This document shows, in pieces, positions 1 through 9,380 of a stretch of DNA of 15,311 nucleotides; within the stretch, counting starts at the first letter, position 1; each line of letters begins with the position of its first letter. Under the pieces are notes generated by a model, which saw only the letters and a list, made by a program, of their open reading frames with translations, ran no database searches and was not told the origin of the DNA. This DNA is from Escherichia coli. GTDB taxonomy: Bacteria > Pseudomonadota > Gammaproteobacteria > Enterobacterales > Enterobacteriaceae. The stretch lies in the NCBI RefSeq assembly GCF_003334815.1, contig NZ_QOWO01000056.1; one strand, written 5' to 3'. The position numbers were made by a program, and so were the translations under genes.

Positions 1-2
1 AC

Positions 3-1174
<1,172 letters not shown>

Positions 1175-1376
1175 CGAAAGTATCTTAGCGGGCATGAAAA
1201 TGGCAAATAACGGTCAAACATCGTGGCGTTGACATTCTGGCTGGAAGTATCGAGTACACGCTCGTAAGCGGCCCTCACGGCCCGCTAACGCGGAGATACG
1301 CCCCGACTTCGGGTAAACCCTCGTCGGGACCACTCCGACCGCGCACAGAAGCTCTCTCATGGCTGAAAGCGGGTAT

Positions 1377-4247: not shown

Positions 4248-4811
4248 TCATCCCCCTACAACCACTCCCATTCGTTTAAGTATTTTTAAACCTGCTTCCT
4301 GTGGTATCTTTATAGATAAGATCCTGTTTATCTCAGGATTTATATCGAGACCTTCTGTCATTGAAAAATCACAGTGAGACAAATCAGAATGTCTGAACTC
4401 TGTATTATTAAACTCCGAACCAGTAAAATCAGATTTACGAAGGTCTGTTTCCTCAAATAAACAATCACGGAAGCGACAGGATAAAAAAATAGATTTCTGT
4501 AACCGTAAACTAATAAAATCAACAAATCTCAAATCACAATTTACAAGAGAAAAAGTACAGGGAAACATAATGTCTGCTGCATTTACTCCTTGTAATAAAC
4601 AATCTTTGAATTCACAGTCAATAAGTTTAAAAAAATTAAGTTTTAAATTCTTTATTGAGCAGTTTACGAAGCGACATTTTTCGAACTCACAATCGCGAAA
4701 GTTAAAGTTGTCAAGCTGTATTCGTTCAAATATACAATTGTAATAATTTACACCTGATAATTCACTTTCACTGAGGTGTCGTTTTGTGATTCTTTTTTCT
4801 ATTATATCCAT
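4248..4811 (-). CDS. mcbG: Microcin B17 immunity protein McbG (pentapeptide-repeat, Qnr-like gyrase protection), 187 aa
   Basis: Last gene of the mcb operon by position; length matches McbG; pentapeptide-repeat character visible (CIFERIQLDNFNFRDCEFEKCRFVNCSIKNLKLNFFKLIDCEFKDC..). Confidence 0.92.
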   Translation of the reverse strand: MDIIEKRITKRHLSESELSGVNYYNCIFERIQLDNFNFRDCEFEKCRFVNCSIKNLKLNFFKLIDCEFKDCLLQGVNAADIMFPCTFSLVNCDLRFVDFISLRLQKSIFLSCRFRDCLFEETDLRKSDFTGSEFNNTEFRHSDLSHCDFSMTEGLDINPEINRILSIKIPQEAGLKILKRMGVVVGG

Positions 4812-4814
4812 GTG

Positions 4815-5546
4815 TCAGTCTCCTGTTCCCATAACTTCTTTAATAAATGCCTTTTCTGGAGTTGTTTCATTATTGGATTGAATAAAATCACTCATATCAG
4901 AATAACGATTTATACTATTTTTTGAAAGCATATAGAAGGGGATTTTATCTCTTGTTAATTCATCAAAAATATGAGTTGAGAAAAATACCGTTTTCCCGTC
5001 AGCGGTGATCTTATTTATCAGTTCCCATAACATCATTCTGTACTGAATATCAATGCCTACAGTTGGTTCATCCAGTAAAAATAAACGGGCATTTTTGCAA
5101 AGCGTTAGCATCAAAGATATGATAAGCCAACGCTTCTCTCCATAACTTACCGTGTAAGTCCTTTTACGTCTTATTTTATCATAGCGAATGAAAAAATTAT
5201 CATTCCATTTATGATTAAGCTCTGTCCATGCCTGTTTTTTAGTTAACTTATTGAAGCAGCAAATCAAATCAAGAACCTCCTCATTCCTTAGTGTACCTGA
5301 AAGATTTATGACTTGAGGTAGACTTACTAATTCTCCACCAGAGAAATTTCGCTTGAGGGTCCCTTCATAATTACTGACTCCGCCCCTGATAAGGTTAAAA
5401 AGAGTGGTCTTCCCGGCTCCATTTTCTCCAAGCAGACCTATCAACTCTCCCTGCTCAATCTTAAGCGACAGATTATTGAAAACAGGGGGTAAATTTACTT
5501 TATATGAAAAGCTCAGAGAGTTGATTTCTAAAAGAGGTATGGTCAT
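4815..5546 (-). CDS. mcbF: Microcin B17 export/immunity ABC transporter ATP-binding protein McbF
   Basis: Walker A GENGAGKTT, ABC signature-like FSGGE, Walker B LFLLDEPT; 4-nt overlap with mcbE (ATGA) suggests translational coupling. Confidence 0.92.
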   Translation of the reverse strand: MTIPLLEINSLSFSYKVNLPPVFNNLSLKIEQGELIGLLGENGAGKTTLFNLIRGGVSNYEGTLKRNFSGGELVSLPQVINLSGTLRNEEVLDLICCFNKLTKKQAWTELNHKWNDNFFIRYDKIRRKRTYTVSYGEKRWLIISLMLTLCKNARLFLLDEPTVGIDIQYRMMLWELINKITADGKTVFFSTHIFDELTRDKIPFYMLSKNSINRYSDMSDFIQSNNETTPEKAFIKEVMGTGD

Positions 5547-6268
5547 TGAGAACTCCAGACTGGCTCAGTTTTGAAGGTTAGTGCTGAAATAATACTTATG
5601 ATTAACATTATACTATAGAAAAATATCGTCATCAGAGACAACTCCTGGTCTGACTGGAGTATTGTAGAATAGATGGCGATAGGATTAACCTGATTTATCC
5701 AGTAAACGATCCCCTCATTATATTTTAATGATACAATTCCTGATACCATACAGACAGTTATTAATACAGAATAGATAGTGCTGGCTGTTTGGAATGTGAC
5801 TCTGAACGATGCCATGAAAGTGAGTGAAACCATCATAAATGCATTTATGTATATCGATTTTAAAATAATCATTACTATTTGATAATCTGGACTTGCCTGG
5901 AATCCTGTTAGTACGACTAAAATGAAAAAAAACACATACAAAATAGACATGATAAGTGAGGCTATTAATTGAGAACGAATAAATAATAGTCGACCATCCA
6001 TATTATGCACGAAGGTAGCAATAAAACCACTTTCTCTTCTTCCGACCAGATACAGACAGTAATTAAACAGAACAACAGAAAAAGAAATGTAGCCTACAAA
6101 CCATGATATTTGTTTTCCGAGCCATGCTGTATCACCATAATGAAGTTCAATTTCATTGAAATGAAGGAAAAAGAACAACACTGTAGGTGACATAATTGTC
6201 CATATTAAGCTGAAAGGGGTTCTGATTTGTTCCATCAGAAAAATTATCGCCATTTTTAATGTAACCAT
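5543..6268 (-). CDS. mcbE: Microcin B17 export ABC transporter permease McbE, 241 aa
   Basis: Highly hydrophobic multi-pass membrane protein of the correct length, positioned between mcbD and mcbF. Confidence 0.9.
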   Translation of the reverse strand: MVTLKMAIIFLMEQIRTPFSLIWTIMSPTVLFFFLHFNEIELHYGDTAWLGKQISWFVGYISFSVVLFNYCLYLVGRRESGFIATFVHNMDGRLLFIRSQLIASLIMSILYVFFFILVVLTGFQASPDYQIVMIILKSIYINAFMMVSLTFMASFRVTFQTASTIYSVLITVCMVSGIVSLKYNEGIVYWINQVNPIAIYSTILQSDQELSLMTIFFYSIMLIISIISALTFKTEPVWSSQ

Positions 6269-6277
6269 TTGTTATCC

Positions 6278-7468
6278 TTATGGGAATGGTACCATCTTTG
6301 ATTCTCTGACTTTAATACCGTCCCCGGTATGGTAAATTTTATTATTAATGTTTATTGCACCTGAGTTATTCATATGAAGGAAAAAATCAGGGCTTACTAT
6401 TTTTGTGTACCAGACAAGGCTGTTACTTACTCTTTCCCTGGCATAGTAAACAAAAATATTATCAGAAATTTGTTGAAGATAGTTTAATAAATTTGTGTCT
6501 GACGTAATATTTTCCTCAAGCGTTAACTTGACATCATCAGACAGTAGTACCGTATTTTCACACAAATCCGTAAACGACTCGTACTTGTTGCATGACATAA
6601 AGTGACGCTGGTAACTATCAATAATGTCATCATCAGTATAACCGCCAATAAGAAAGTTGTGCAGGCATATATACGATTGCCACAATTCCACTACGGATTT
6701 ACAAAGTGCTTTTTTCAGACTATTAGCATAGGATAATCCGGTACTGTATTTTATTCGACTGATTTTGTTTTTTGTGCCATACAGGGTTAGTACTGCGTGT
6801 CCAGGAGCTCCGGGCAGGGTGATATCGAAAATCCTGATATCTCCTTCTGACCTGAGAGCCAGTAAAATCTCATCTATATGATTTATGCCTGTTACTATTT
6901 CACTGGATATTTCAGTATTGGCTTTTCCCTGTAACCAGTAAAGAAGGAGGGACTGTCTCTCCATAAATTCACACAAGGAACCTTCTATGGCATCGTTCAA
7001 ACTACCATGAAAGCTACATCCGCATGTATCTCTGTCAGGATAAAATTTCAGATCATCTGCAGCGGTTATATTGTCGAGTGCAATTATGACTGCAGGTATT
7101 TCTTGTTGTTCAAGGCTAAACAGATTAAAGGCTCTGACCGTTTTAAATTTATGGGTTATGATTTCATCGCGGGTCAGTGATGAGATCTGAAAAAATGCTT
7201 CGGTAAAAGCCTTTGCAGCAGATGGAGGCATCATCTCATATAATGTTTTCTGACCACCGGTGACTATCTCATTAAAAAAATGACGGCGTTCAAAATATTC
7301 ACCTATTGCCCCCTGAATTGACTTCAGAGTTTCACCGGCCGCGCTGGCTGGTGTAATACGCTCATAGTCCCATATCTGAGAAAACGTTGGCATATTTCTG
7401 TTCAGTTTTGGACTCATGGCCATTGTGGCCGGCCATGCGGACATAAGGTTACTGTAGACATTTATCAT
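6278..7468 (-). CDS. mcbD: Microcin B17 synthetase YcaO-type cyclodehydratase McbD, 396 aa
   Basis: Position and length match McbD of the mcbABCDEFG operon; start overlaps the mcbC 3' end by 20 nt. Confidence 0.92.
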   Translation of the reverse strand: MINVYSNLMSAWPATMAMSPKLNRNMPTFSQIWDYERITPASAAGETLKSIQGAIGEYFERRHFFNEIVTGGQKTLYEMMPPSAAKAFTEAFFQISSLTRDEIITHKFKTVRAFNLFSLEQQEIPAVIIALDNITAADDLKFYPDRDTCGCSFHGSLNDAIEGSLCEFMERQSLLLYWLQGKANTEISSEIVTGINHIDEILLALRSEGDIRIFDITLPGAPGHAVLTLYGTKNKISRIKYSTGLSYANSLKKALCKSVVELWQSYICLHNFLIGGYTDDDIIDSYQRHFMSCNKYESFTDLCENTVLLSDDVKLTLEENITSDTNLLNYLQQISDNIFVYYARERVSNSLVWYTKIVSPDFFLHMNNSGAININNKIYHTGDGIKVRESKMVPFP

Positions 7469-8267
7469 CGTTTACATCTCCAAAAAACTGAACGATCAGT
7501 GGCGCTACGGTCCTCTGATCCAGATTCATTGTTTTTGCTACGTATGAATCGGTATATCCCGCCCATACCCGGTTTTTCAGTCCTATTTGATCTGCAACCA
7601 ATACTGCGTTCTGATACATCGAACCTGTTTCCATTAAGGCCATCCGGTATCCTCTGTAGCGATATTTGAACAAAGCTTTTTCAAAAATAATGCAATAGAC
7701 GAGAGCAAAATGGGGTTTACCAAGACGTTCCGAATCCCCACCGGACAGGCTTCGGTAGAGTGACTGAGTATTACATGTAGCAACAGGTTCCAGTGCCTGA
7801 CTTAGCGGCAGGTAGTGATAAACATTAGTTCCTGCCTGCCAGTTTTCTGTATTTTCAGATAATCTGCATAAAAAAACTTCAATCGGGTACAATGCCCCCC
7901 CAGAAGGATAAGGTCTTCTTACAGAGCCAGGATCAGGTGAGCTGAATGCATTGACTAATAACTTTTCAATAGTACGAATGGAAAGTTTATTTTTGTCGCA
8001 AAAGTTTATTCCTGATGGGAGCCTTTCACGACTAAAATTATGTGATGAGGATATGTTTATTACGGAGCTGAAACCTGGCCTGAAGAGAACTTCTTTATTT
8101 TCAAATTTCTCCAGATGGGCAAGAGGTACCGCGGACACGAAAGTTCGTTCAGCAAATTCGGGGAGGGAAGCAAAGTTACCTCTGACATGAAAATCTTTAA
8201 CAATGGCCAGAACTTCAGGATCTGTGTAATGCGTTACTTCCACTAAAGAGAGTTCGTGTTTTGACAT
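7449..8267 (-). CDS. mcbC: Microcin B17 synthetase FMN-dependent dehydrogenase McbC, 272 aa
   Basis: Position and length match McbC; immediately follows mcbB with a 1-bp gap. Confidence 0.92.
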   Translation of the reverse strand: MSKHELSLVEVTHYTDPEVLAIVKDFHVRGNFASLPEFAERTFVSAVPLAHLEKFENKEVLFRPGFSSVINISSSHNFSRERLPSGINFCDKNKLSIRTIEKLLVNAFSSPDPGSVRRPYPSGGALYPIEVFLCRLSENTENWQAGTNVYHYLPLSQALEPVATCNTQSLYRSLSGGDSERLGKPHFALVYCIIFEKALFKYRYRGYRMALMETGSMYQNAVLVADQIGLKNRVWAGYTDSYVAKTMNLDQRTVAPLIVQFFGDVNDDKCLQ

Positions 8268-8268
8268 G

Positions 8269-9156
8269 TTATCTCTCCAGACAGCTGCAAGCCTGCCAGT
8301 GAATTACCGGCTCTTTACATAAAATACTGGTGATTAAATCAGCGCTAACAGATGACATAAAGTTATCGACATGACTTTTAACCAGTGAAGTACCTGTCAA
8401 CTCCTGAAGTCGCCGTTTTATTAAATGATAGCTGAATCCTCTTTCTGATTCGCCTAAAGCCAATGCTGGTAGTGTCATTTGGTATTTTTTCAGTAACTGA
8501 AGTAAGTTTGCCCAGGACATTTCGTTACGTCTGAAGCTTTTTTCTTCCCTGCTCAGCCATCTCTCTATATGACAAAAATGGCAGGGAGTACCAAGATCAG
8601 GTGAATATACTCCATCTATCCTGAATGACTCCTTTAGGTAGTAGCTTTGGATGAAGGCAACACCAGGGTTACTTTCAAATTTTGAATAGATTCTTTTTAC
8701 AATGTCTGAATGATAGTTTTCGAGATGTAACCAGATTAGTGTTGAATCGCTCACATTAATATTATTATCTTTTATATCAATGATATGAGAAACAAAAACA
8801 CCATCAGATTTCCATTGTTCCCGGGCATTACTGAAAAGATGTGGAACATCGCTTATTATGACTGAGTTTACCCAGAGAGGTGATGTTTTCGTTTTATTTA
8901 TCACGCCTGTGGTAATAAGAAACTCTTTGCCCTTGTCTTTATCAATAAGCGATTCGTCCAGTAGTTTATCAAGGAGGTATTCAGAAATAATACCCTGTTT
9001 GGATCGTAGGCTTTCGAGTACTTTTTTCATTCCCTCATGTGTAATGTCTACTGAAGAAATGTAGGTAATAAGCAGGGTCTTTGTATTTCTGGAAATTATC
9101 TCAAATGGCAGAATATTGATCATATCTTTTCCTTTTTTAATATCAGGGAGCACCAT
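8269..9156 (-). CDS. mcbB: Microcin B17 synthetase zinc-binding scaffold/cyclodehydratase subunit McbB, 295 aa
   Basis: Position and length match McbB; Cys/His clusters (..PCHFCHIERW.. and C-terminal ..HWQACSC..) are consistent with a zinc tetrad. Confidence 0.92.
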   Translation of the reverse strand: MVLPDIKKGKDMINILPFEIISRNTKTLLITYISSVDITHEGMKKVLESLRSKQGIISEYLLDKLLDESLIDKDKGKEFLITTGVINKTKTSPLWVNSVIISDVPHLFSNAREQWKSDGVFVSHIIDIKDNNINVSDSTLIWLHLENYHSDIVKRIYSKFESNPGVAFIQSYYLKESFRIDGVYSPDLGTPCHFCHIERWLSREEKSFRRNEMSWANLLQLLKKYQMTLPALALGESERGFSYHLIKRRLQELTGTSLVKSHVDNFMSSVSADLITSILCKEPVIHWQACSCLER

Positions 9157-9164
9157 GCTCCCTG
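9144..9164 (-). promoter_or_regulatory. Hairpin in the mcbA-mcbB intergenic region sequestering the mcbB Shine-Dalgarno, with the AUG in the loop
   Basis: Minus-strand RNA reads 5'-CAGGGAGC-AUGGU-GCUCCCUG-3': a perfect 8-bp stem whose 5' arm contains the AGGGAG ribosome-binding site, with the mcbB start codon in the 5-nt loop. Confidence 0.5.
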
Positions 9165-9182
9165 AACGGTTAATTCAACGTA

Positions 9183-9380
9183 TCAGATATGTGAACCACT
9201 TCCGCCGCTGCCACCGTTTCCACCACTACAACCGTTGCTGCAACCACCACAACCGCCACCTTGACCACCGCAGCTACCGCCGCCACCACCACCAATGCCA
9301 ACACCTAATGGAGACTGGCGTGATAATTTAAGAGCATCAACGGACAAAACTACACCAAATTCACTCGCTTTTAATTCCAT
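9183..9380 (-). CDS. mcbA: Microcin B17 precursor peptide McbA (65 aa in this copy)
   Basis: Translation MELKASEFGVVLSVDALKLSRQSPLG|VGIGGGGGGSCGGQGGGCGGCSNGCSGGNGGSGGSGSHI is the McbA leader plus Gly/Ser/Cys-rich core. Shine-Dalgarno AGGAG lies 5-6 nt upstream. Confidence 0.95.
   Translation of the reverse strand: MELKASEFGVVLSVDALKLSRQSPLGVGIGGGGGGSCGGQGGGCGGCSNGCSGGNGGSGGSGSHI

Follow-up and report, generated by a model that had tools for sequence, protein, structure and literature searches.

A six-glycine allele of the microcin B17 precursor gene mcbA in Escherichia coli, probably derived by loss of GGC units from a triplet repeat

We analysed a stretch of 15,311 nucleotides from Escherichia coli (RefSeq assembly GCF_003334815.1, contig NZ_QOWO01000056.1), called the window below, whose minus strand carries the genes for the production, export and immunity of microcin B17 (MccB17). 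The precursor peptide, McbA, has a run of six glycines in its linker, and we therefore refer to this allele as G6 and to other alleles by their glycine counts in the same manner. The features of the locus, with the basis of each assignment, are as follows.

9183..9380, minus strand: mcbA, microcin B17 precursor, 65 aa (G6 allele) plus stop (NF041037 profile, translations of relatives)
9303..9380, minus strand: leader peptide, codons 1-26, MELKASEFGVVLSVDALKLSRQSPLG (same as the reference, by comparison with plasmid L010)
9186..9302, minus strand: core peptide, 39 codons, 43 in the reference (sequence comparison)
9276..9293, minus strand: Gly linker, six codons, GGT GGT GGT GGC GGC GGT (sequence; the reference has (GGT)3(GGC)6GGT)
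9279..9284, minus strand: (GGC)2, apparently left over from a (GGC)6 triplet microsatellite (allele comparison)
9270..9275, minus strand: site A Ser-Cys, the first oxazole-thiazole bis-heterocycle (sequence; site assignment from the MccB17 review)
9143..9165, minus strand: 10-bp perfect hairpin between mcbA and mcbB (RNA folding)
8269..9156, minus strand: mcbB, 295 aa, scaffold and leader-binding subunit, with C277S (TIGR04424, 287 bits)
7449..8267, minus strand: mcbC, 272 aa, FMN dehydrogenase (same protein in G9/G10 plasmids)
6278..7468, minus strand: mcbD, 396 aa, YcaO cyclodehydratase (same protein in G9/G10 plasmids)
5543..6268, minus strand: mcbE, 241 aa, export and immunity (ORF list, relatives)
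4815..5546, minus strand: mcbF, 243 aa, ABC ATPase, export and immunity (ORF list, relatives)
4248..4811, minus strand: mcbG, 187 aa, pentapeptide-repeat gyrase protection (ORF list, relatives)
374..1174, plus strand: IS21-family IstB helper ATPase gene (NF038214, 302 bits)

The mcbA reading frame consists of 65 codons followed by TGA, and its translation is MELKASEFGVVLSVDALKLSRQSPLGVGIGGGGGGSCGGQGGGCGGCSNGCSGGNGGSGGSGSHI. The protein scores 123.3 bits against the NCBIfam profile NF041037 ('microcin B17 family TOMM'; cutoff, 70 bits), with residues 1-65 aligned on profile positions 1-69; given this score and its position directly upstream of full-length mcbB to mcbG, mcbA is not a chance open reading frame. 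Two further frames overlap it, one of 71 aa that is rich in His and Arg (9116..9331, plus strand) and one of 44 aa that is rich in Val and Ala (9170..9304, minus strand), and both are by-products of the GGN repeat read in other frames. Tails of the VVAAV type also occur in frameshifted database proteins (P0033, P0035, P0038 and P0039).

The definitive sequence paper on pMccB17 gives McbA as a protein of 69 aa, in which ten glycines (residues G30-G39) separate the leader from the first heterocycle (Collin & Maxwell 2019). As the reference for DNA comparison we used a G10 plasmid (L010, NZ_CP024888), whose run reads (GGT)3(GGC)6GGT. The ten-Gly linker of the type sequence is absent from the McbA of the window, which has six glycines instead, and the Ser-Cys of site A lies 4 residues nearer the leader than in the reference. 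The leader itself (26 aa, ending at Gly26 and containing the McbB-binding helix) is the same as in L010, as is the core 3' of the Gly run, with its sites GSC, GC, GCS, GCS, GS and GS and the C-terminal SHI. Since the leader and the remaining core match the reference, the sole difference in McbA is a 12-nt in-frame deletion. A sequence-only reading of this DNA had described a 65-aa precursor with these six codons on the minus strand, and had called it a deletion of four glycines from a canonical McbA of 69 aa (26-aa leader, 43-aa core, 10 Gly). The codons at 9276..9293 agree with that description, the canonical figures are borne out by the pMccB17 paper, the review and L010, and the deletion stands as a 12-nt loss with the remainder identical to L010.

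Compared with the canonical McbA of pMccB17 (GenBank ON989342 and M24253; 69 aa), with which it shares the leader, heterocyclisation sites and C-terminus, the McbA of the window has four glycines fewer ((GGC)2 versus (GGC)6) and a predicted mature peptide of 39 rather than 43 residues, 228 Da lighter; the two operons also share the gene order mcbABCDEFG and the McbC-G proteins. RefSeq applies the name 'microcin B17 family TOMM' to the G6, G7, G8 and G9 proteins alike, so that ten glycines are a trait of the type allele and not of the family.

The observation of a G6 McbA is correct but not new, and the novelty that the sequence-only reading had implied does not hold: the allele is already present in RefSeq, in UniProt and in Table S2 of Cox, Doroghazi & Mitchell 2015. 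The translation of the window mcbA is the same as those of four plasmids (L001, L002, L005 and L006), and the identical 65-aa protein is RefSeq WP_021545189.1, annotated on L001, L005 and L006. Table S2 gives this exact 65-aa sequence as UniProt T8B6T6 (E. coli HVH 216), and the same table holds a 71-aa McbA allele (KTE39). Cox et al. reported in 2015 that Gly-linker length varies among E. coli McbA precursors, a polymorphism that is repeated in the 2019 review (Collin & Maxwell), and the G9 allele of pSF-173-1 has been noted by another group. Our literature search found neither a functional test of the natural G6 allele nor an explicit treatment of mcbA in terms of slippage or trinucleotide repeats. 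The same 65-aa protein is encoded by the same codon string in L001, L002 and L006, but the operon of the window is 3 SNPs away from those of these G6 plasmids and encodes McbB C277S, and its backbone matches no PLSDB record exactly.

The distribution of linker lengths was surveyed with two DNA queries. The first, 381 nt around mcbA, was run against PLSDB and the complete RefSeq E. coli genomes and gave hits in 132 plasmids of PLSDB and in 108 records of the complete E. coli genomes, all of them plasmids and none chromosomal; the matched spans varied from 381 to 393 nt, which is a length polymorphism. The second query, the 210-nt G10 gene, separates the alleles by identity band (108 E. coli records and 131 PLSDB records), as listed here.

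Identity of at least 99%: G10; 83/108 in E. coli complete genomes, 71/131 in PLSDB
Identity of 95-99%: G7-G9, G11 (213 nt) and G12 (216 nt); 19/108 in E. coli, 31/131 in PLSDB
Identity of 90-95%: G6 and one divergent G7 (SCU-111); 4/108 in E. coli (three G6), 4/131 in PLSDB (three G6)
Identity of 80-90%: divergent mcbA, mostly from Klebsiella in PLSDB; 2/108 in E. coli, 25/131 in PLSDB

When both collections are taken together, G6 is carried by five separate records of complete plasmids, originating in four countries: UPEC-245U/190328 (Mexico), EC03 (Spain), PRO_A-1462 (Tanzania) and two plasmids from UK sheep farms, which are probably related to each other. The codon string of the window was read directly in L001, L002 and L006 and is also present, as judged by a 198-nt span, in CP057547. 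The mcbA lengths seen were 198, 201, 204, 207, 210, 213 and 216 nt, all of them multiples of three. Expanded alleles were found at 213 nt (G11; among others in strains Ch1, BEN5202 and FDAARGOS_1287) and 216 nt (G12; strain 21437, CP088657), in records H166-H169 and H218-H220. Contractions of the linker outnumber expansions. The G5 allele lies on 155 contigs in a large protein collection, and G4 on a few; G5 is also listed in 308 blocks of an assembly collection, and mcbB-G were full length in 8 of the 8 contigs fetched. The allelic series thus runs from G4 to G12 across hundreds of assemblies. An exact-sequence look-up of the G4-G13 forms of McbA in a 15-billion-protein collection returned only G4 (63 aa) and G5 (64 aa); the alleles of 65 to 72 aa, canonical 69-aa McbA included, are absent from it, and the whole McbA cluster seems to be missing. 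Because the canonical protein, which is certainly public, is also missing, absence from this collection is uninformative on rarity, and since it lacks G6-G13, allele frequencies were taken from the DNA searches of complete plasmids.

The alleles differ in a simple way, with six GGC units in G10, five in G9, four in G8, three in G7, two in G6 (the window) and one in G5, all the differences being in whole GGC units. The earlier remark that the GGN tract is prone to slippage holds. Over about 5.3 kb, the operons of L010 (G10), L001 (G6) and L018 (G5) have 0 SNPs between them. The window shares a haplotype with L002 and L006 (A at 9106 and C at 7509), whereas L001 has G and T at these positions, as does L010. 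Plasmid L005 arrives at six glycines by another codon route, (GGT)2(GGC)3GGT, and three or more haplotype groups carry G5. The same length change therefore recurs, with G6 on at least two haplotypes and by two codon routes, which rules out a single origin of G6. These comparisons indicate that linker length changes faster than point mutations accumulate, and the allelic series points to repeated slipped-strand mispairing in a triplet microsatellite. We propose that the canonical linker is encoded by one such short microsatellite, (GGT)3(GGC)6GGT, from which replication slippage would remove, or to which it would add, GGC units in frame; in the window allele four units would have been lost, leaving (GGC)2. 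Recombination could add to the spread of lengths across haplotypes, as an alternative to recurrence.

The tract has the property of a simple sequence repeat locus, in that the copy number of the tandem repeat varies between near-identical relatives. It does not show the reversible on/off switching that is a classical trait of contingency loci, as the triplet unit leaves all alleles (198-216 nt) in frame. Otherwise identical TOMM precursors of the faecalisins (Cox et al. 2015) differ in Gly-linker length alone, like the mcbA alleles, which suggests the same repeat-slippage process; the faecalisins differ from McbA in that their core, a Cys repeat, is unrelated, their producers are different and no product is known.

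The sequence-only reading had left undecided whether the short linker was a natural variant or an artefact, in which the true sequence would have ten Gly codons and the GGN-rich tract would have been collapsed in sequencing or assembly. GGN repeats are indeed error-prone on some platforms, and the window is an independent record for which PLSDB holds no identical match (the best match has 98.2% identity over 92%, and the operon is at least 2 SNPs from any other). However, the codon string of the window recurs in complete plasmids assembled by different groups, and this favours the natural variant; the deletion amounts to exactly four GGC units and is in frame; the full G4-G12 series is found in hundreds of assemblies; and the protein has had accessions of its own for years (WP_021545189.1 and T8B6T6). 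At 18 nt (18-30 nt across the alleles), the tract is also far shorter than any read, and assemblers would for this reason not collapse it. We consider an artefact very improbable.

The remainder of the operon gives no sign of damage. All six genes from mcbB to mcbG follow mcbA on the same strand at reference lengths, the operon is 3 SNPs from those of the G6 plasmids L001, L002 and L006, and it encodes the same McbC-G proteins as the G9 and G10 plasmids, with McbB differing by C277S alone. The serine codon (AGT) results from a SNP at window position 8328 (mcbB codon 277, minus strand); Cys277 (TGT) is found in L001, L002, L005, L006, L007, L009 and L010 and in all eight G5 contigs, and Ser277 is common to the window and L003 (G7). 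The zinc ligands of McbB have been published as C192, C195, C290 and C292, and a C266A/C269A double mutant was reported to show unaltered MccB17 production. In the 284-aa numbering, C266/C269 is the CxxC motif that holds residue 277, and it is not the zinc site. The possibility that C277S is a zinc-ligand lesion that kills the synthetase was thus ruled out: the residue is not a ligand, the C266A/C269A mutant is normal, and L003 shares the serine. The substitution is probably neutral. A compensatory change in the synthetase for the short linker was likewise ruled out, McbC and McbD being the same as in the G9/G10 plasmids.

The first ATG of the 295-aa McbB frame lies within the hairpin between mcbA and mcbB, UCAGGGAGCA-UGG-UGCUCCCUGA (folding of 9110-9200 gives an MFE of -25.1 kcal/mol, z = -3.3). 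The second McbB ATG (Met12, at 9123) has an AAGGA Shine-Dalgarno sequence of its own and is the RefSeq start (284 aa). Either the ratio of mcbA to mcbB expression or the choice of McbB start could depend on the hairpin, which has no T-run and so is not a classical terminator. At the other end of the window, the closest mcb plasmids in PLSDB match only from base 1235 onward, with 1..1234 unmatched, and from this point of match we take the IS21-type element to bound the conserved backbone. Scanning the window against Rfam, for tandem repeats and for promoters and terminators yielded nothing that bears on the linker variant; at the thresholds of the tandem-repeat finder, the 18-nt Gly tract goes unreported.

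What a six-glycine linker would mean for the microcin can be approached from two bodies of published work that point in different directions. In a linker series from the Walsh laboratory (11, 9, 7, 5 and 3 Gly, in McbA1-46, in vitro), as summarised by Collin & Maxwell 2019, the 11-Gly and 9-Gly substrates were like wild type by MS, with the former processed twice as fast as wild type and the latter at 20% of wild-type velocity; the 7-Gly substrate gave 10% velocity and one ring only, and those with 5 or 3 Gly were near or at background. The variable in this series, the Gly count between leader and site A, is the same one that differs in the window, and its six glycines lie between the 7 and the 5 that were assayed. 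Interpolation between these two in vitro values would make G6 a poor substrate and the operon possibly a weak producer or a nonproducer. The Walsh substrates were, however, truncated, single-site and processed in vitro, whereas the window encodes a full-length natural precursor together with its own synthetase. In vivo, variants without the whole polyglycine are processed normally and retain 85% activity (Collin & Maxwell 2019). The same review describes Ec-McbI, an engineered deletion of residues G28-G37, and a P. syringae microcin, Ps_MccB17, which works with two residues only before site A (both Metelev et al. 2013). In both, the spacer before site A is short or absent, and yet the peptide is processed and active in vivo; Ec-McbI is engineered and Ps_MccB17 belongs to a remote homologous system whose synthetase has diverged, whereas the window keeps six glycines and the E. 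coli synthetase.

From the in vivo data on linker-less variants, we predict that the G6 precursor would yield a processed, active microcin of 39 residues and about 2865 Da. With the TldD/E cleavage site unchanged, the product should be MccB17 minus four N-terminal glycines; its calculated mass with 8 rings is 2864.9 Da, compared with 3093.0 Da for the reference. Because the tether between the Ser-Cys and the McbB clamp that holds the leader is shorter, the first bis-heterocycle probably forms more slowly from G6, and any change in yield and activity in vivo is probably modest. Tether length would then affect rate rather than feasibility, which fits the published structure: there the leader anchors the substrate to the clamp on McbB, and the core moves back and forth between active sites some 40 Å from one another. 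The deleted glycines precede the gyrase-poisoning core, on its N-terminal side, and matter chiefly for uptake; the N-terminal region of MccB17 has been found to affect uptake and not gyrase poisoning (Collin & Maxwell 2019). Presumably, the Gly run is a flexible tether with some part in uptake that contacts neither gyrase nor the active sites. Since the leader, the heterocyclisation sites, McbBCD, the exporter and the immunity gene are all intact, we infer that the operon still makes microcin. Our best reading of G6 is that it would be a mildly suboptimal but functional allele. The occurrence of G5 in intact operons speaks against strong counter-selection, or at any rate against later decay, while the G10 majority and the retention of ten glycines in the divergent Klebsiella-type mcbA suggest that ten are favoured in the long term.

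Taken as a whole, we hold with good confidence that the mcbA of the window is a genuine, catalogued natural allele, carried on an IncF-type plasmid, that would have arisen by GGC slippage in an operon that should still make microcin. Set against this is the view that six glycines form too short a tether for efficient processing of site A by McbBCD, so that G6 is a loss-of-function allele or a strong hypomorph and the operon hitch-hikes on a successful conjugative plasmid. The in vitro velocities (10% at G7, background at G5) are what this view would lead one to expect, as is the dominance of G10 in nature and its retention in the divergent Klebsiella lineage, and other natural alleles delete site A outright (P0010 and P0029), so that damaged mcbA alleles do circulate. 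We nevertheless regard loss of function as unlikely, given the normal in vivo processing and 85% activity of variants without polyglycine, the P. syringae system with its two residues before site A, and the absence of secondary decay, the six downstream genes being full length both in the window and in 8/8 G5 contigs.

It might also be supposed that (GGC)n is a functionally meaningful, hypermutable in-frame tuner, in which the G4-G12 series sets the speed of site A cyclisation and uptake. We think this doubtful, and were it so, the abundance of G5 and G6 in intact operons would mean that the in vitro rule (activity lost below about 7 Gly) fails in vivo for the full-length precursor. A stronger version, that the repeat is a selected in-frame contingency locus whose lengths are kept for production rate, self-toxicity or uptake specificity (OmpF/SbmA), we consider highly improbable. 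Linker length does outpace SNPs and recurs on several haplotypes, the N-terminal region does affect uptake rather than gyrase poisoning, and the doubled speed of the 11-Gly substrate in vitro implies that length tunes rate. But the tract is short (6 units), the fetched records display no association of length with host, source or plasmid type, and a single dominant allele, with most of the others contracted, is the pattern expected from slippage that is neutral or mildly deleterious.

As a discovery, the G6 allele is of small value, given that accessions exist and that the polymorphism has been in print since 2015, with a further mention in the 2019 review. Its use lies elsewhere: natural G4-G6 alleles in intact operons offer a ready test, in vivo, of the long-tether requirement seen in vitro. 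Mass spectrometric screens of MccB17 producers should expect shorter mature microcins (about 2865 Da predicted for G6), and a McbA of other than 69 aa should not be annotated as an error.

Several other mcbA variants were encountered. A Klebsiella-type mcb operon is found in L019 (7001..7210; K. pneumoniae INF235 plasmid NZ_CP031818) and in about 24 other Klebsiella plasmids, where it sits between umuC and umuD. Its mcbA has 86-87% DNA identity (about 13% divergence) and encodes a 69-aa McbA with V27I and C41S; the latter makes site A GSSG and not GSCG, and so predicts an oxazole-oxazole or a single oxazole in place of the oxazole-thiazole. The ten-Gly tract of this type is one of mixed codons (GGC GGC GGT GGC GGT GGC GGT GGC GGC GGA) and is less prone to slippage. 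Larger in-frame deletions of the core that remove heterocyclisation sites are seen in P0010, P0012, P0013, P0020, P0025, P0029, P0019 and P0022; P0010 (62 aa, 22 contigs) lacks the Ser-Cys of site A, and in P0029 (54 aa, 11 contigs) the linker runs straight into GCGGCS. From these sequences, the indel hotspot appears to be the whole GGN-rich core and not the linker alone. Finally, L004 (6101..7777; E. coli HCP4S3_I4 plasmid, NZ_JBWDPW010000003) carries an orphan G8 mcbA with an IS3-family transposase about 260 nt on; its mcbB is cut to 11 codons and mcbC-G are absent, and it is a decayed operon remnant.
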